From the NCBI RefSeq assembly GCF_046105845.1, contig NZ_CP151004.1: DNA of 64,000 bases. One strand, given 5' to 3'. The notes under the pieces were generated by a model, which was not told the DNA's origin, ran no database searches, and was given only the letters and a program-made list of their open reading frames with translations. This DNA comes from Escherichia coli. GTDB taxonomy: Bacteria; Pseudomonadota; Gammaproteobacteria; Enterobacterales; Enterobacteriaceae. This document shows positions 1,025 to 58,956 of this stretch, in pieces. Positions within the stretch are counted from its first letter, which is position 1. Each line of letters starts with the position of its first letter. Position numbers and translations under genes: made by a program.

Positions 1025-4000
1025 ACATATTCACGCTTTCTCTCGGTCTGGCCGTCATGCCGATGGTCGAGGCAGCACCAACCGCTCAGCAACAGTTGCT
1101 GGAGCAAGTTCGGTTAGGCGAAGCGACCCATCGTGAAGACCTGGTGCAACAGTCGTTGTATCGTCTGGAACTTATTGATCCGAATAACCCGGACGTCGTT
1201 GCCGCCCGTTTCCGTTCTCTGTTACGTCAGGGCGATATTGATGGCGCGCAAAAACAGCTCGATCGGCTGTCGCAGTTAGCGCCGAGTTCAAATGCGTATA
1301 AATCGTCGCGGACCACAATGTTGCTTTCCACGCCGGATGGTCGTCAGGCACTGCAACAGGCAAGATTGCAGGCGACGACTGGTCATGCAGAAGAAGCTGT
1401 GGCGAGTTACAACAAACTGTTCAACGGTGCGCCGCCGGAAGGTGACATTGCCGTCGAGTACTGGAGTACGGTGGCGAAAATTCCGGCTCGCCGTGGCGAA
1501 GCGATTAATCAGCTAAAACGCATTAATGCGGATACGCCGGGCAATACGGGCCTGCAAAACAATCTGGCGCTATTGCTGTTTAGTAGCGATCGCCGTGACG
1601 AAGGCTTTGCCGTCCTGGAGCAGATGGCGAAATCGAACGCCGGGCGCGAAGGAGCCTCTAAAATCTGGTACGGGCAGATTAAAGATATGCCCGTCAGCGA
1701 TGCCAGTGTGTCGGCGCTGAAAAAATATCTCTCGATCTTTAGTGATGGCGATAGCGTAGCTGCGGCGCAATCGCAACTGGCAGAACAGCAAAAACAGCTG
1801 GCCGACCCTGCTTTCCGCGCTCGTGCGCAAGGTTTAGCGGCGGTGGACTCTGGTATGGCGGGTAAAGCCATTCCCGAACTACAACAGGCGGTGCGGGCGA
1901 ACCCGAAAGACAGTGAGGCACTGGGGGCGCTGGGCCAGGCGTATTCTCAGAAAGGCGATCGCGCCAATGCGGTGGCGAATCTGGAAAAAGCCCTCGCCCT
2001 GGATCCGCACAGCAGCAACAACGACAAATGGAACAGTCTCCTGAAAGTAAACCGCTACTGGCTGGCGATCCAGCAGGGCGATGCTGCGCTGAAAGCCAAT
2101 AATCCTGACCGGGCAGAACGCCTGTTCCAGCAGGCGCGCAATGTCGATAACACCGACAGCTATGCAGTGCTGGGGCTGGGTGATGTGGCGATGGCGCGCA
2201 AAGATTACCCTGCAGCCGGACGTTATTATCAGCAGACGCTACGGATGGACAGTAGCAACACTAACGCCGTGCGCGGTCTGGCGAATCTTTATCGCCAGCA
2301 ATCGCCGGAAAAAGCCGAAGCGTTTATCGCCTCGCTCTCTGCCAGCCAGCGGCGCAGCATTGATGATATCGAACGCAGCCTGCAAAATGACCGTTTGTCA
2401 CAGCAGGCAGAGGCACTGGAAAAACAGGGCAAATGGGCGCAGGCAGCAGCACTTCAGCGCCAGCGACTGGCGCTGGACCCCGGCAGTGTATGGATTACTT
2501 ACCGACTTTCACAGGATCTCTGGCAGGCCGGACAACGCAGCCAGGCCGATACGTTAATGCGTAATCTGGCGCAGCAGAAGCCGAACGACCCGGAGCAGGT
2601 TTACGCTTACGGGCTGTATCTCTCTGGCCATGACCAGGACAGAGCGGCGCTGGCGCATATCAACAGCCTGCCGCGCGCGCAGTGGAACAGCAATATTCAG
2701 GAGCTGGTTAATCGACTGCAAAGCGATCAGGTACTGGAAACCGCTAATCGCCTGCGAGAAAGCGGCAAAGAAGCTGAAGCGGAAGCGATGCTGCGCCAGC
2801 AACCACCTTCCACGCGCATAGACCTCACGCTGGCTGACTGGGCGCAACAACGACGTGATTACACCGCCGCCCGCACTGCATATCAGAATGTCCTGACGCG
2901 GGAGCCAGCTAACGCCGATGCCATTCTTGGTCTGACGGAAGTGGATATTGCTGCCGGTGACAAAGCGGCGGCACGTAGCCAGCTGGCGAAGCTGCCTGCC
3001 ACCAATAACGCCTCGCTGAACACTCAGCGGCGCGTGGCGCTGGCACAGGCGCAGCTTGGCGATACCGCAGCGGCGCAGCAGACGTTTAATAAGTTGATCC
3101 CGCAGGCAAAATCTCAGCCACCGTCGATGGAAAGCGCGATGGTGCTGCGCGACGGTGCGAAGTTTGAAGCGCAGGCGGGCGATCCAACGCAGGCGCTGGA
3201 AACCTACAAAGACGCCATGGTTGCATCCGGTGTGACCACGATGCGTCCACAGGATAACGACACCTTTACCCGACTGACCCGCAATGACGAGAAAGATGAC
3301 TGGCTGAAACGCGGCGTGCGCAGCGATGCGGCGGACCTCTATCGTCAGCAGGATCTTAACGTCACCCTCGAGCACGATTACTGGGGTTCGAGCGGCACCG
3401 GTGGTTACTCCGATCTGAAAGCGCACACCACCATGTTGCAGGTGGATGCGCCGTACTCTGACGGGCGGATGTTCTTTCGCAGTGATTTCGTCAATATGAA
3501 CGTCGGCAGTTTCTCCACTAATGCCGATGGCAAATGGGATGACAACTGGGGCACCTGTACATTACAGGACTGTAGCGGCAACCGCAGCCAGTCGGATTCC
3601 GGTGCCAGCGTGGCGGTCGGTTGGCGAAATGACGTCTGGAGCTGGGATATCGGCACCACGCCGATGGGCTTCAACGTGGTGGATGTGGTCGGCGGCATCA
3701 GTTACAGCGATGATATCGGGCCGCTGGGTTACACCGTTAACGCCCATCGTCGGCCCATCTCCAGTTCTTTGCTGGCCTTTGGTGGGCAAAAAGACTCTCC
3801 GAGCAATACCGGGAAAAAATGGGGCGGCGTGCGTGCCGACGGCGTGGGGCTAAGCCTGAGCTACGATAAAGGTGAAGCAAACGGCGTCTGGGCATCGCTT
3901 AGCGGTGACCAGTTAACCGGTAAAAATGTCGAAGATAACTGGCGCGTGCGCTGGATGACGGGCTATTACTATAAGATCATCAACCAGAATAATCGCCGTG

Positions 4001-46742: not shown

Positions 46743-47322
46743 AACATTCCTTATTGTTCATCTATTTCGCTAAATTTTTGTAAATCGGAGAATTAGAGCA
46801 GGAATGGATTTTCTTCTACGCGGAAATAAACACAATGCGCCATATCTTCCTGATATAATTACCTTTAACTTCCCTTTCATTTCCACCCGGTAATATTTGT
46901 GTATAAAAAAAGGGCAGTGATAGTATCGTAAAGGAAAACGTTAACAACTATCAAAAAGCGCTCATTTTAAAAAGTTATGATGTTCTCCGATAGTGTGTGA
47001 AGTGATATTTTTGTGATGTTTTAGATGTGTAATAATGAACCAGGTTAAAGTGTATTTAAAAATGTGTTGTATTGGCGACTGAAATCTGCCCTTTAAAAGG
47101 GGGGATAGCACTGAGACAAAGAGGCATTGCTTCTCCGATAAAATGTCAGAGAAGCATGATTGCGTGGTGATTGTCGATTGATGACTTACTGACGGATCCG
47201 TCATCATTCTCAAAGCATTAGTTAAGTTATTTGTGATTTTTAAGGATTATCCTATCTATGATTTTCTACTCAGAAGGATAAGGCACTCACAATGCTCCTT
47301 ATAGTTTACTGCTGGCATCTAT

Positions 47323-48324
47323 TTAAAATAGCATTTGAGTCAAATAGCCCATCAAGATAGCCATACCTAAGATAACCGTCAGGAATGCAGCTATCATCGG
47401 CATTCTGAACATTGATTTAAGTAATATCACTTCCGTCAGGCTTGCTCCGGCACTGCCGATGATTAATGCCATTAATGCTCCCAGCCCCATTCCTTTTGTC
47501 ATCAGAACAGATGCCAGAGGGATAACCGCCTCTGCCCGGATATACAGCGGAATTCCGACAACGGCGCTCAATGGGATGGCGAAGGGATTATCTGCCCCTG
47601 CATGAGCGGCAATCCACTCTGAGGGAATAAAGCCATAAATAAAAGAGCCTATTAATACCCCTAACAAAAGATATGGCAGTACATCTTTAAACTGTTGCAA
47701 CGCATCTTTGGTGGCTAGTTTTATGGGATTAATACTTACCACAGCTTTGGTACTGCAACAGTTTACTACAGGTTTCTCAATGGCTTTAGCCGCTGGACTA
47801 CAGCAACTCACTTTTATTGGCGTATATGTCGTCCCCGGCGAAGTTTTGGCTGGAGCACAACAATTTGCTGATGAGCTTTTACTGGCAATGATATGACGTT
47901 CAAATCCCAGGGAATCCAGGATAATACTGGCAAGTACGGAGACGCCGGCGGCGATAATCGCGTACAACAAGGTAACTTTCCAGCCAAAGGTCACCCACAT
48001 TAACCCGACGATAATGGGATTAAGTAATGGGGAAACAAATAAAAAAGTGAGGGTCGGACCAAACCCGGCTTTCGCTGATAACAATCCACGTAACATGGGG
48101 ATTGTCGAGCAACTACAGAACGGGGTAACGGCTCCCAACAGAGCAGCCAGGAGATAACCTCTCCCTTTTCTGGCCCCCATCATCTGCTGGATTTTATGGT
48201 CTGGCACCTTTTGTCTTATCAGGCTGACACCGGCACTAATCACTATAAACAGCAAAGAAAGCTCGACGGCGAGAAACACAAACATCTCTGCGGCATCTTG
48301 CAGCATCGCAAGCCAACTACTCAT
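47323..48324 (-). CDS. Cys-rich polytopic permease (DUF318 / ArsP-like, TPFCSCS motif)
   Basis: Start taken at ATG 48324 (MSSWLAMLQ...), which has SD gagg; an alternative ATG lies at 48336. At least 8 hydrophobic segments, motif AVTPFCSCSTIPML, central loop with three CC pairs. Confidence 0.8.
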   Translation of the reverse strand: MSSWLAMLQDAAEMFVFLAVELSLLFIVISAGVSLIRQKVPDHKIQQMMGARKGRGYLLAALLGAVTPFCSCSTIPMLRGLLSAKAGFGPTLTFLFVSPLLNPIIVGLMWVTFGWKVTLLYAIIAAGVSVLASIILDSLGFERHIIASKSSSANCCAPAKTSPGTTYTPIKVSCCSPAAKAIEKPVVNCCSTKAVVSINPIKLATKDALQQFKDVLPYLLLGVLIGSFIYGFIPSEWIAAHAGADNPFAIPLSAVVGIPLYIRAEAVIPLASVLMTKGMGLGALMALIIGSAGASLTEVILLKSMFRMPMIAAFLTVILGMAILMGYLTQMLF

Positions 48325-48349
48325 ACGTAACCTCATTGAATAAATCTAT

Positions 48350-48369
48350 ATTTCCAGAATAATCGAAAT
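48350..48369. promoter_or_regulatory. 20-bp dyad box 1 (ATTTC-N10-GAAAT) in the divergent permease/regulator promoter region
   Basis: atttccagaataatcgaaat; second near-identical copy 37 bp away. Confidence 0.4.
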
Positions 48370-48386
48370 GAAATTCAGATCAAGAT

Positions 48387-48406
48387 ATTTCTGGTATTAT
48401 CGAAAT
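48387..48406. promoter_or_regulatory. 20-bp dyad box 2 (ATTTC-N10-GAAAT), candidate operator of the adjacent ArsR-like regulator
   Basis: atttctggtattatcgaaat; about 25 bp upstream of the regulator ATG. Confidence 0.4.
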
Positions 48407-48431
48407 ATCAACCAGACAAAGGGGGTGTCAT

Positions 48432-48728
48432 ATGCAGTTGGAAGAAGTTGCTAAAGCGCTGAAAGAGCTAGGTCACCCGACCCGTTTGTTCATATTCAAA
48501 CACCTGGTCAAAGCGGGGGAACAAGGTTTGCCGGTCGGTGAGTTGCAAAAGCAGCTTGGGATACCCGGCTCTACACTCAGTCACCATATTTCAGCACTGG
48601 TATCGGTAGGGCTGGTCAAACAAAACCGTGAGAGTCGGACGCTGATGTGTGTTTCGCAATACGCAATGCTGGAAGCGATAATTGAATTCTTACGCGAGGA
48701 GTGCTGCGTAAATAGCAAAATTGCCTGA
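48432..48728 (+). CDS. ArsR/SmtB-family winged-helix regulator, atypical (no CVC site; C-terminal CC pair)
   Basis: 98-aa ORF with ATG and strong SD (aaaggggg); HTH region LGHPTRLFIFKHLV...LGIPGSTLSHHISALVSVGLV; C-terminal EECCVN. Confidence 0.8.
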   Translation: MQLEEVAKALKELGHPTRLFIFKHLVKAGEQGLPVGELQKQLGIPGSTLSHHISALVSVGLVKQNRESRTLMCVSQYAMLEAIIEFLREECCVNSKIA

Positions 48729-48777
48729 TGCGCTACGCGCTACAGATTTCATGCCATATATTGAATTTGCACGGTTT

Positions 48778-48816
48778 TGTAGGTCGGATAAGACGCGTTA
48801 GCGTCGCATCCGACAT
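48778..48816. repeat. REP (repetitive extragenic palindrome) element
   Basis: tgtaggtcggataagacgcgttagcgtcgcatccgacat resembles canonical E. coli REP units (gccggataaggcg...cgcatccggc); lies between convergent genes. Confidence 0.6.
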
Positions 48817-48861
48817 AAACGAAGCGCACTTTACCAACTATCGGCAGTGGATATCGCCGCT

Positions 48862-49287
48862 TTATTTCAGGCGTTTACCCGCTTCATCAACCACTTTCTC
48901 GCCATCTTCCTTGGTGAACGCGCCTTGTTGCGCATTTGGCAGAATTTCCAGCACCACTTCTGAAGGGCGGCACAGGCGAGTTCCCAGCGGCGTCACCACA
49001 ATCGGGCGATTAATCAGAATCGGGTGCTGAAGCATAAAGTCGATTAACTGATGGTCAGTAAATTTATCTTCTGCAAGGCCCAGTTCCTCATACGGCTCGA
49101 CGTTTTTACGCAGCAGCGCGCGTACGGAAATCCCCATATCGGCAATGAGTTTGACCAGCTCATCGCGCGTTGGCGGTGTTTCCAGATAATAGATAATGGT
49201 CGGTTCTGTACCGCTGTTGCGGATCATCTCCAGCGTGTTACGCGACGTGCCGCAGGCCGGGTTGTGATAAATGGTAATGTTGCTCAT
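48862..49287 (-). CDS. arsC: Arsenate reductase (glutaredoxin-coupled) ArsC
   Basis: 141-aa ORF, N-terminal MSNITIYHNPACGTSRNTLEMI with catalytic Cys. Confidence 0.95.
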   Translation of the reverse strand: MSNITIYHNPACGTSRNTLEMIRNSGTEPTIIYYLETPPTRDELVKLIADMGISVRALLRKNVEPYEELGLAEDKFTDHQLIDFMLQHPILINRPIVVTPLGTRLCRPSEVVLEILPNAQQGAFTKEDGEKVVDEAGKRLK

Positions 49288-49299
49288 ATCAATATCTCA

Positions 49300-50589
49300 T
49301 TACAAAGTGAAAGAGAGACGTAGCGCCAGCGCAGCCAGCGTCACAAAAAGCACCGGCAGGGTCATGATAATTCCTGTACGGAAGTAATATCCCCAGCTGA
49401 TAGTCATATTCTTCTGCGAAAGTACGTGCAGCCAGAGTAGCGTAGCCAGGCTACCAATTGGGGTAATTTTCGGTCCCAAATCGCAGCCAATCACGTTGGC
49501 ATAAATCATCGCTTCTTTGATAACGCCAGATGCCGTGCTGCCATCAATGGACAACGCGCCAACCAGTACCGTCGGCATATTGTTCATAATAGAAGAGAGG
49601 AAGGCGGTGAGGAATCCGGTGCCGAGCGTCGCGGCCCACAGGCCGTTTTCCGCCAGCACGTTGAGTACGCCAGAAAGATATTCCGTTAGTCCGGCATTGC
49701 GCAGGCCATAAACCACCAGATACATGCCGAGCGAGAAGATGACAATCTGCCAGGGCGCACCGCGTAGCACCTTACCCGTATTAATTGCATGACCGCGTTT
49801 AGCGACGGCAAATAATATCAGCGCGCCCACTGCCGCAATGGCGCTGACCGGAATGCCGAGCGGTTCCAGGACGAAAAATCCCACCAGCAGAAACAGTAAA
49901 ACAACCCAGCCAGTTTTGAAGGTTGCAGGATCTTTAATCGCTTCTGCGGGAGATTTCAGCAGCGCCATATCGTAGTTCTGCGGAATATCTTTGCGGAAAT
50001 AGAGATGCAACATCACCAGCGTGGCAACAATTGCGGCGATATCCACCGGCACCATCACCGATGCGTATTCGCGAAAGCCGAGGCCAAAGAAATCTGCGGA
50101 AACGATATTCACCAGGTTGGAGACAATAAGCGGCAGGCTGGCGGTATCGGAAATGAATCCGGCCGCCATCACGAACGCCAGCGTAGTGCCTTTACTGAAC
50201 CCTAAAGCCAGCAGCATGGCGATGACAATTGGCGTTAAAATCAGCGCCGCACCATCATTGGCAAACAGAGCTGCAACGGCAGCACCGAGCAGGACAATCC
50301 AGGTGAACAGCAAGCGACCGCGTCCATTGCCCCAGCGTGAGACGTGCAGCGCTGCCCATTCAAAAAAGCCGGACTCATCCAGCAGCAGGCTGATGATAAT
50401 AACGGCAATAAACGCAGCCGTCGCGTTCCAGACGATATTCCACACCACCGGAATATCACCCGGATGTACCACGCCCGTAACTAACGCCAGTACTGCGCCG
50501 AGTGTTGCACTCCAGCCGATGCCTAAACCTTTCGGCTGCCAGATAACCAATACGATGGTCAGGACAAAGATAGCGCCTGCCAGTAACAT
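49300..50589 (-). CDS. arsB: Arsenite/antimonite efflux pump ArsB
   Basis: 429-aa polytopic protein from internal Met ([17 protein letters not shown]...). Confidence 0.95.
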
Positions 50590-50997: not shown

Positions 50998-51148
50998 ATT
51001 GCGCTCCTGATTGTTGCCGGTAGTGTCTCTCTTCGAAGCGGATAAGTCAAAAACATATATGACTTAACGAATATGTAAGTGTGGAGAAAGGTATAGATGT
51101 GAATTAAGCGTTGGGTATTCATTTGAAAGGAGGTCTGAATCAGGACGT

Positions 51149-51233
51149 AAAAAAACCGACTTTGCGTCGGTTTTTTACTTTCCAGCCCTGAGTTGGTGGC
51201 TCTGGCTGGAGTGAGAGAGCTCTTATCTAACAG
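51149..51233 (-). ncRNA. agrB: agr-type antisense sRNA repeat (probably agrB), antitoxin of dinQ
   Basis: About 85 nt between arsR and dinQ; minus-strand transcript would end at hairpin ccgacgcaaagtcgg plus U-tract; body is complementary to a dinQ leader segment (ctggccggagtgagagagttcttatctaaca at about 51632-51662); A/B assignment from recalled K-12 order. Confidence 0.5.
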
Positions 51234-51383
51234 TTCAATACTATTAGCCAGTGGCTAACATTGCAAGAATTAGCGATTTCTTCAGCTGGAGAAGGGACAG
51301 TTTGCTATACATGTTGGTGAAAGAGGATTTATATACTTTCATCGGGTCGCTGCCGTACCAAGCCTTGTCCGAATCCGGACGTA

Positions 51384-51467
51384 AAAAAACCGACTTCGCG
51401 TCGGTTTTTTACTTTCCAGCCCTGAGTTGGTGGCTCTGGTTGGAGTGAGAATGCCATCATCTAACGC
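51384..51467 (-). ncRNA. agrA: agr-type antisense sRNA repeat (probably agrA)
   Basis: Second copy of the same repeat and hairpin, 235 bp from the first. Confidence 0.5.
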
Positions 51468-58665: not shown

Positions 58666-58921
58666 ATTTATTAACCTTCCAATACCATCCTGAAAAGTAT
58701 GAACGCGTAAGGGATAACGCGCGAAAAAGTTTACATCTGTCAGAGATTCTTAATATTGATGCGGTGAATAGATTAATACACTATTACAACAGAAAATAAC
58801 CAGCTGATCACACTAATGATGGAAAATATGATGGTGTTAAATGTTGTATTGGTAGGGGATTTTGATTGCGTACGCAGACCGTAGGCCAGATAAGGTGTTT
58901 ACGCTGCAAGGTAACAAGGCG

Positions 58922-58956
58922 CGCCAAAAAGCAAAACGCCCGCATATGCGGGCGTT
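58922..58956 (-). terminator. Rho-independent terminator of uspA
   Basis: Minus-strand stem aacgcccgc / gcgggcgtt with loop atat, followed by ttttgcttttt. Confidence 0.8.

Follow-up and report, generated by a model that had tools for sequence, protein, structure and literature searches.

Organization of the locus

We analyzed a stretch of 64,000 nucleotides of E. coli DNA (hereafter the window), in which the region of interest corresponds to the E. coli gor-dinQ-arsRBC-yhiS-slp-dctR locus, reversed relative to K-12. The features discussed below are collected in Table 1. Two genes, one coding for an ArsR/SmtB-family regulator and the other being arsC, converge on a short intergenic segment that holds a repetitive extragenic palindrome (REP). 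The ArsR-like stop codon lies 50 nt to the left of the REP and the arsC stop codon 46 nt to its right, so that the REP is indeed found between convergent stops, where the original prediction had placed it. A gene for a permease is located on the other side of the regulator gene and is transcribed divergently from it.

Table 1. Positions in the window of the genes, repeats and relics described in the text.
Feature	Position	Strand	Description
Permease gene	47323–48336	-	337 aa; Pfam ArsP_1 (PF03773), 180 bits against a cut-off of 32.3 bits
ArsR/SmtB-family regulator gene	48432–48728	+	98 aa; C-terminal EECCVNSKIA*
ArsR-like stop codon (TGA)	48726–48728	+	Inside the left iREP
arsC	48862–49287	-	Last gene of arsRBC
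BIME-1-like composite	about 48716–48845		About 130 bp; left flank GCAAAAyTGCC, iREP, linker, REP, right flank; left boundary uncertain by about 6 nt because GCAAAA occurs also in the outgroup gene
Left iREP, truncated	48723–48745	+	5' arm GCCTGATGCGCTACGC (48723–48738) intact; CTAC remnant at 48740–48743
Linker between REPs	48746–48778		About 33 nt; homologous to the dppA-dppB BIME linker
REP	48779–48815	+	GTAG-GTCGGATAAGACGC-GTTA-GCGTCGCATCCGAC-A; 37-nt imperfect palindrome
GTAG tetranucleotide of the REP	48779–48782	+	5' foot
Inverted arms of the REP	48780–48796 / 48801–48817		17 nt each, 82% complementary, 4-nt gap
BIME right flank motif	48815–48845		AAGCGCACTTT..CAAC.ATC.GC
Hairpin and T-run abutting the arsC stop	48846–48861	+	What decay has left of the ancestral shared terminator; intact in E. 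whittamii (AAGGGGGATATACCCCCTT)
Interval missing from K-12-type alleles	47083–48658		About 1.58 kb, except collinear micro-relics
Permease-gene relic	47677–47699		23 nt, collinear in "empty" alleles; CAGTACATCTTTAAACTGyTGC
Second probable relic	48070–48083		12/13 match

The regulator aligns best to AfArsR (PDB 6J05; phmmer), with its EECC placed on ENCC and its CC pair on Cys95/Cys96, and it ends six residues past the CC pair, without a third cysteine at the position of Cys102. This two-cysteine pattern is that of the MAs(III)-selective SpArsR, whereas the third cysteine (Cys102) is present in As(III) sensors (PMC11868830). The permease contains a TPFCSCS motif and a Cys-rich loop; ArsP exports trivalent organoarsenicals (PMC6205960). 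In NCBIfam, neither protein scores above the cut-off of any equivalog. The pair adjoins arsRBC in three genera (Escherichia, Citrobacter and Buttiauxella) and arsH on plasmids; the plasmid permease copies lie next to arsH, and the plasmid copies are 84–85% identical. Homology and context make a function in organoarsenical sensing and efflux the most likely one for the pair. It would have in common with the ArsP/two-cysteine ArsR module (C. jejuni ArsP; S. putrefaciens SpArsR; A. ferrooxidans AfArsR) the ArsP_1 family, the CC pair, the missing third cysteine and the ars context, homology and context being the grounds on which the module is recognized here. The regulator also has an extra cysteine in the segment LMCVSQ.

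The intergenic palindrome is a canonical REP

The segment 48778–48816 reads TGTAGGTCGGATAAGACGCGTTAGCGTCGCATCCGACAT, all but its first and last nucleotide being the REP proper. As RNA, the palindrome is predicted to fold with -25.7 kcal/mol, compared with -11.5 ± 2.3 kcal/mol for 200 shuffled sequences (z = -6.16), none of which folds as well. On the plus strand it has the "REP" orientation, with GTAG at the 5' foot (convention of PMC3333891), and in the stem GGATAAGACGC faces GCGTCGCATCC, a mismatch of AA opposite GC as read by eye. A 5' GTAG and a two-base stem mismatch are the hallmarks of E. coli REPs, and both are needed for recognition by TnpA_REP (PMC3333891, PMC3479197).

With regard to class, the element matches the published long z-type consensus GCCTGATGCGACGCTGGCGCGTCTTATCAGGCCTACG at 28 of 32 positions and the y-like consensus at 30 of 35 (PMC11208160). 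It is mixed: the foot (TCGGA...TCCGA) is y-like, with two compensatory pair changes relative to the long-z consensus, and the apex (ACGCG-TTAG-CGTC) is of long-z type. In Rfam the element scores 29.7 bits with the REP-derived naRNA4, below the gathering score of 59.5.

As judged by a two-arm pattern search, this is the sole full REP in the 64-kb window (shuffle mean 0.005), and the same search found no tandem repetition of it there. Elsewhere the sequence is abundant. A 51-nt query centred on the REP has matches in 5425 of 5426 E. coli genomes, at no fewer than 14 places in each matching genome and at a median of at least 40; of the places counted, up to 40 per genome, 203101 are chromosomal and 182 are on plasmids. 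Fourteen of 15 sampled matches have no annotated feature beneath them. The "canonical-looking" REP of the original prediction is thus borne out by its arms, fold, GTAG, consensus match and copy number: it is a canonical E. coli REP, high in copy number, dispersed and extragenic. With the REPs described by Stern, Higgins and Gilson (reviewed in PMC3333891) it shares palindrome size, GTAG, the AA/GC mismatch, an extragenic position and dozens of copies, and it differs from them as a class hybrid, with a y-like foot and a long-z apex.

The REP is one half of a BIME-1-like composite

The linker separates the REP from a second one on its left, in inverse orientation (iREP), which the original prediction had missed. 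In the window the 3' arm of this iREP is gone, as part of a loss of 8 bp that read CTGTCAGG in K-12. The dppA-dppB intergenic region contains a paralogous BIME, which aligns with this one over 137 nt, from the left flank through the iREP, the homologous linker and the REP to the right flank. With a 201-nt query, genomes have five or more matching places each at E ≤ 1e-10 (the median being 18), a value that a lone 39-nt REP could not reach, as estimated from BLAST statistics. The multi-place matches and the dppA-dppB alignment together identify the unit as a single-copy BIME-1-like composite, of which the REP is the right, GTAG-bearing half.

In BIME-1 elements a long L linker separates the REPs and frequently carries an IHF site (PMC3333891). 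Like the BIME-1 of dppA-dppB, the composite has inverse REPs whose CTAC and GTAG face a linker of about 33 nt, a single copy of the unit, and flank motifs. It differs in that the iREP of the window has no 3' arm, and in that the linker has diverged and its IHF-like core is weak: read by eye, the core departs from WATCAANNNNTTR at about two positions in the window and at some three in K-12. Some strains (alleles L006, L093, L095 and L096) carry an 11-bp deletion (TATATTGAATT) in the linker, and in alleles of the L006/L093 type the IHF-like core is deleted outright. The REP classes would differ as well, the textbook combination being z1 and y, whereas here a short-type left REP is combined with a right REP of y-like foot and long-z apex.

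The K-12-type locus is a relic of the regulator/permease pair

The regulator/permease pair is variable among E. coli strains. Counting a locus as occupied when at least 80% of the query 46800–49300 is covered, we find it occupied in 2224 of 5426 complete genomes (41%), the remaining genomes matching in two pieces. A K-12-type, "empty" locus, for which at least 80% of the 628-bp K-12 arsC-yhiS spacer had to be covered, is present in 3166 (58%). Phylogroup B1 has the pair, and A, E and B2 are without it. The original prediction rested on two suppositions about K-12, both of which hold. The same REP is found downstream of arsC (MG1655 3650711–3650747; 37/39 identical), and the MG1655 annotation passes from arsC to yhiS with nothing between, so that the two genes, whose presence there would have meant that there is no indel, are missing.

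The original prediction also proposed to define the borders of the indel by aligning the junction with K-12 and other phylogroups. We aligned the window and the occupied alleles of GF60, 2013C-3277, 54214, 1943 and MS1665 with K-12 (EC600, MG1655), O157 and B2 alleles, and these alignments place the borders at about 47083 and at 48659. The right-hand homology begins inside the ArsR-like gene, about 120 bp from the REP. Still present in the K-12, O157 and B2 alleles are the right flank, the linker, the two REPs and some 70 bp from the 3' end of the ArsR-like gene; their relic ArsR-like tail reads ...TMLDAIIGISRREYCVNSKIA*, and further upstream it has stop codons and a 5-bp insertion. On the left, homology ends in AT-rich unique sequence. 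There is no REP at this border, and the two-arm pattern finds no REP arms anywhere in 46743–48722.

Between the two borders, K-12-type alleles hold about 65 nt, in which relics of the permease gene are found. One is identical at 22 of 23 positions in the B2 allele L003 (BLAST E = 9e-6) and occurs also in K-12 and O157; the second is probable. MAFFT placed this middle piece differently in two runs, and its position was settled by BLAST and by global alignment with cheap gap extension, where matches of 8 nt or less (e.g. AAGCAGCT) were treated as possibly due to chance. Because the internal permease fragments are collinear, the pair appears to have been lost through several internal deletions. 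Judged by these alignments, the "empty" locus is an eroded relic of the pair, and the REP is the end point of no deletion. Two genomes (H137 and H138) that had been candidates for a break at the REP edge were rejected; their alleles are ordinary occupied ones, and megablast had stopped at the 11-bp deletion in the linker.

The two types of locus differ in the left REP. It is complete, with 29 nt (GCCTGATGCGCTACGCCTGTCAGGCCTAC), in the K-12, O157 and B2 alleles, and that of K-12 is of the short type (27/29 to GCCTGATGCGCTACGCTTATCAGGCCTACG). The 8 bp are lost in all six sampled occupied alleles (the window and five others). A search with a synthetic occupied allele in which the 8 bp had been restored found no occupied allele with the K-12 form of the intact left REP in the 5426 complete genomes, the best match having 96.3% identity and a span shorter by 8 nt. 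The association of an occupied locus with a truncated left REP is complete among complete genomes.

Outgroups and the order of events

From a scan of one GTDB representative genome per species, 80 permease loci were kept, among which E. fergusonii, E. albertii, E. marmotae and E. ruysiae are not represented. In E. whittamii the pair occupies the corresponding syntenic position (gor-arsRBC-ArsRlike-permease-slp-dctR), and in Citrobacter gillenii it lies next to arsBC (arsBC-ArsRlike-permease); in Buttiauxella the permease adjoins arsCBR in another arrangement. No REP half-sites are found at the E. whittamii or C. gillenii loci. The arsC-regulator spacer of E. whittamii holds nothing but a terminator-like hairpin (AAGGGGGATATACCCCCTT, then ATTTGTT) directly after arsC, and that of C. 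gillenii holds a GC hairpin.

The regulator of E. whittamii ends in ...CCVNSKTDGEGAAENK*, and its homology to the E. coli regulator stops at AGCAAAA, where the REP sequence starts. The E. coli regulator ends in ...CCVNSKIA*, with its TGA inside GCCTGATGCG, so that its last two codons and the stop codon are BIME sequence. As the outgroups have the pair without a REP, the BIME would have been inserted later, a timing that we read from these two REP-less outgroup loci.

Based on these observations, we propose the following order of events. The ancestral Escherichia locus would have consisted of arsRBC and a divergent arsR-like/arsP-like pair, arranged tail to tail with a shared small hairpin terminator. 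In the E. coli lineage, a BIME would then have entered the intergenic space at the tail end of the ArsR-like gene, taking the place of its last ten or so codons and donating the TGA of GCCTGATGCG. In one haplotype (K-12, O157, B2; 58%), several deletions would have eroded the pair, leaving the 3' tail, permease crumbs and the BIME; in the other (that of the window; 41%), the pair would have stayed intact, and the left REP would have lost 8 bp and with them its hairpin. We thus consider it likely that the REP is the intact half of a BIME that was retained in both haplotypes, that it predates the indel, and that it sits outside the indel and occurs in both states.

Haplotype divergence, recombination and IS621 insertion at the REP

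Occupied and relic alleles are 81.9% identical in the ArsR-like tail, 93.8% in the 5' arm of the left REP, 56.4% in the rest of the left REP and the linker, 94.9% in the right REP (98% when the stems only are counted) and 71.5% in the right flank. In the first 60 nt of arsC the identity is 94.6%, equal to the value within each class. Fisher's test of REP against flanks, applied to three relic alleles separately, yields p of about 1e-3 each time. Since B1 occupied strains and K-12 have identical ArsC and ArsB proteins, the deep divergence does not extend beyond some 250 bp linked to the indel, and we regard this block as an old two-haplotype polymorphism. Allele differences within the REP fall mostly in the loop (TTAG, CCAG, TCAG); B2 and O157 alleles tolerate single stem-breaking changes, and compensatory changes in the stem are absent from the sampled alleles of this locus.

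One haplotype combines both types. In strain NIPH17_0020 (allele L090), the sequence to the left of the REP is an O157-like relic (63/64 and 38/39), and to the right it is of the occupied type (45/45, against 35/47 to O157). The switch points to a crossover inside the REP, which is the only long identical stretch. Up to 274 genomes (about 5%) belong to this haplotype at an identity of at least 99%. As the sole long identity between diverged haplotypes, the REP can host homologous crossovers.

In strain MB53, and only there, an IS621 is inserted in this REP, between GTAG and GTCGG, with a 2-bp AG (CT) overlap. IS621 is a member of the IS110 family with a bridge-RNA recombinase, and it targets REPs at a CT core, its natural target being the REP tail ATCAGGCCTAC or ATCGGGCCTAC (PMC11208160). 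The target used here, ATCCGACCTAC, has two mismatches to the preferred ATCAGGCCTAC. The MB53 insertion has in common with the described system (PMC11208160; Choi 2003) its position at the CT core of ATCCGAC-CT-AC, and the ends of the element would form the circle junction ACAGTAT-CT-TGTAT. It is, however, unrelated to the permease/regulator indel.

A possible role of the REP at mRNA 3' ends

REP hairpins define and protect mRNA 3' ends (PMC6061677). No T-run follows the REP on either strand, so that by itself it does not make an intrinsic terminator, and a scan found no terminator-like site on the arsC strand. The hairpin dominates the predicted folds of both convergent transcripts. The arsC transcript would enter the REP 46 nt past its stop codon. 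Decay of the ancestral arsC terminator in E. coli has left no other strong hairpin downstream of this gene. We propose that transcription of the convergent arsRBC and ArsR-like units would end by diffuse or Rho-dependent termination, after which the hairpin, although it has no U-tract, would shield the 3' ends of both mRNAs from 3'-5' exonucleases. This role as 3'-end protector for the arsRBC and regulator transcripts is the one that we favour, as inferred from the features in common with documented REP-stabilised 3' ends (Newbury 1987; Dar & Sorek 2018, PMC6061677), namely a stable hairpin without a U-tract, 46–50 nt past convergent stops, and a decayed ancestral terminator. It differs from those cases in being recognized here by structure and position. 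The BIME is not maintained as a whole, given that the linker is poorly conserved and in some alleles partly deleted.

The left REP may have acted differently. Liang, Rudd and Deutscher reportedly found in 2015 that a REP hairpin starting at a stop codon stalls terminating ribosomes and lowers expression of the upstream gene. If the left REP was originally such a hairpin, starting at the stop codon of the regulator, the 8-bp deletion, present in every sampled pair-bearing allele and in no sampled relic allele, may have been adaptive, a repair that released the ArsR-like gene from translational repression by the REP, with the right REP being kept by selection as the 3' protector shared by the two convergent transcripts. 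We offer this reading as speculation, and rate it as rather improbable.

Alternative explanations

The alternative that fares best is that the REP has no local function and is a selfish or neutral repeat, kept uniform by concerted evolution (gene conversion, TnpA_REP/RAYT), with the crossover and the IS621 insertion being incidental. Concerted evolution with the other REP copies could indeed account for the conservation of the REP amid diverged flanks. The linker and the left REP have decayed freely, as seen in their 8-bp and 11-bp deletions and 56% identity, and only the form that TnpA_REP can bind is intact (PMC3333891). The lack of compensatory stem changes and the tolerance of stem-breaking changes in B2 and O157 agree with this explanation too. 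The decay of the arsC terminator, which left the REP as the only strong hairpin downstream, nevertheless speaks for a local role, as do the documented activity of REPs as 3'-end protectors (PMC6061677) and the concentration of allele differences in the loop, which structural constraint predicts. We hold a purely selfish or neutral REP to be possible but doubtful.

A second alternative is that the BIME serves mainly to bind proteins (IHF in the linker, gyrase or Pol I on the REPs) and organises topology between the convergent units. The BIME-1-like architecture, in which the linker frequently has an IHF site (PMC3333891), and the homology of the linker to that of the dppA-dppB BIME fit such a function. 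The linker, however, is the least conserved part of the BIME, with 56% identity, and its IHF-like core has two to three mismatches, as read by eye, and is deleted in L006/L093-type alleles, which makes protein binding as the main function unlikely.

The remaining two alternatives concern the indel itself. The original prediction suggested that the REP may be the recombination scar, or a landmark, of the event that removed or added the pair. REPs are substrates for rearrangement and IS insertion (PMC3333891, PMC11208160), this REP lies on the arsC side of the variable segment in both states, and one recombinant haplotype switches inside it. As a border it nonetheless fails: homology continues past it for about 120 bp to the left, through the linker, the second REP and about 70 bp of ArsR-like sequence, to 48659; the left edge has no REP; the internal permease fragments of relic alleles imply multiple deletions; and the outgroups have the pair without a REP. 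An origin of the REP as scar or border is thus very unlikely. What stands is a weaker sense of landmark, in that the REP is retained on the arsC side of the indel and hosts a crossover in one haplotype class, without being the border.

Finally, that the pair is a recent island inserted into an empty, K-12-like site with the BIME as attachment site would agree with related pairs on plasmids near arsH, Tn3 and IS26, with the patchy chromosomal spread (B1 with, A, E and B2 without), and with close permease relatives in distant genera such as Aeromonas, but it is highly improbable in view of the decayed regulator 3' end (in-frame stops, 5-bp insertion) and permease fragments in empty alleles, of the E. 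whittamii pair at the same syntenic site and the C. gillenii pair by arsBC, and of the mere 84–85% identity of the plasmid copies.

Implications for the E. coli ars locus

The features found here are all of known kinds: REP/BIME, gene erosion and IS621 targeting. REPs or BIMEs between convergent E. coli genes are textbook, and the presence or absence of the pair is ordinary pan-genome variation. The reading that we prefer, a BIME older than the indel and retained on both haplotypes, has consequences for how this locus is seen in E. coli. The 628-bp arsC-yhiS spacer of K-12 is not empty, holding a BIME and an eroded arsR/arsP-like relic. The arsR/arsP-like module, which about 41% of complete E. 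coli genomes still have, would be ancestral at this site in Escherichia. The stop codon of a gene comes from a mobile repeat, and the REP stands, about 95–98% identical, inside a block in which the haplotypes differ by 20–45%.

Recombination at the REP and allelic mosaicism

Across about 250 bp (window 48620-48861, against 3330-3570 of the relic-allele locus L001), occupied haplotypes, which carry the ArsR-like/permease pair, differ by 18-44% from relic haplotypes, in which the pair is eroded. The arsC and arsB proteins beside this divergent block can be identical across haplotypes, as between B1 and K-12. The divergence looks like an old two-haplotype polymorphism that has been reshuffled by recombination. 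NIPH17_0020 carries a recombinant haplotype with its crossover within the REP (L090 1200-1380, equivalent to window 48783-48820): the sequence left of the REP is relic and O157-like, and that to the right is of the occupied type. Haplotypes of this kind occur in up to 274 genomes in the class of at least 99% identity.

The best overall match to 46800-49300, from the occupied-allele strain GF60, reaches only 99.2%. Over the ~100 bp immediately upstream of yhiS (46743-46842), the window and GF60 are markedly unlike every other allele sampled, whether occupied or relic, and this segment is a further local mosaic block.

Insertion and deletion within the BIME

In MB53, and in that genome only, the REP is interrupted by IS621, an IS110-family element with a bridge-RNA recombinase (L097 3086-4365). 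The element sits exactly at GTAG|GTCGG, where the overlap is the 2-bp CT core, and its target, ATCCGACCTAC, has two mismatches relative to the preferred ATCAGGCCTAC. In a subset of occupied alleles (L006, L093, L095 and L096) the BIME linker lacks 11 bp, equivalent to window 48764-48774, and with them TATATTGAATT, the IHF-like core.

The inverted left REP of the BIME (48723-48738) provides the final two codons and the TGA stop (48726-48728) of the ArsR-like gene; in the outgroup E. whittamii, where the BIME is absent, the ArsR-like C-terminus is 10 residues longer (TDGEGAAENK). The 100-aa ORF that crosses the REP and runs antisense to arsC is a typical spurious frame spanning a REP. Elsewhere in the window, a truncated y-type REP has a GC hairpin shortly downstream of it (about 58936-58955), and two strong Rfam matches to AgrB are the counterparts of the agrA/agrB antisense RNAs that the K-12 annotation places at the dinQ locus.

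Additional features in the window
Feature	Position	Strand	Remark
100-aa ORF	48728-49030	+	contains …GRIRRVSVASD…
AgrB (Rfam)	51147-51230	-	108 bits
AgrB (Rfam)	51381-51464	-	100 bits
Truncated y-type REP, GTAGGCCAGATAAGGTGTTTACGCTGCA	58880-58910		second arm absent

Gene content and the permease/ArsR pair

In the B2-type genomes L003, L091 and L092, arsR and arsB are both absent and arsC directly adjoins dinQ/gor, so that arsC is an orphan there. E. whittamii lacks yhiS between the permease gene and slp (L010 5087-5671), so E. coli may have gained yhiS later.

The permease (47323-48336, minus strand) contains a Cys-rich loop, CCAPAK...SCCSP...NCCSTK, at residues ~165-205, which may bind metalloids. 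The length of the loop differs among alleles and relatives, whose genes or matches span roughly 330-380 aa. A copy of the pair with about 85% nucleotide identity is found on the ETEC1722 plasmid (L008 3301-5674), where arsH comes next and Tn3-family and IS26 sequences lie on the flanks; a related module is therefore mobile.
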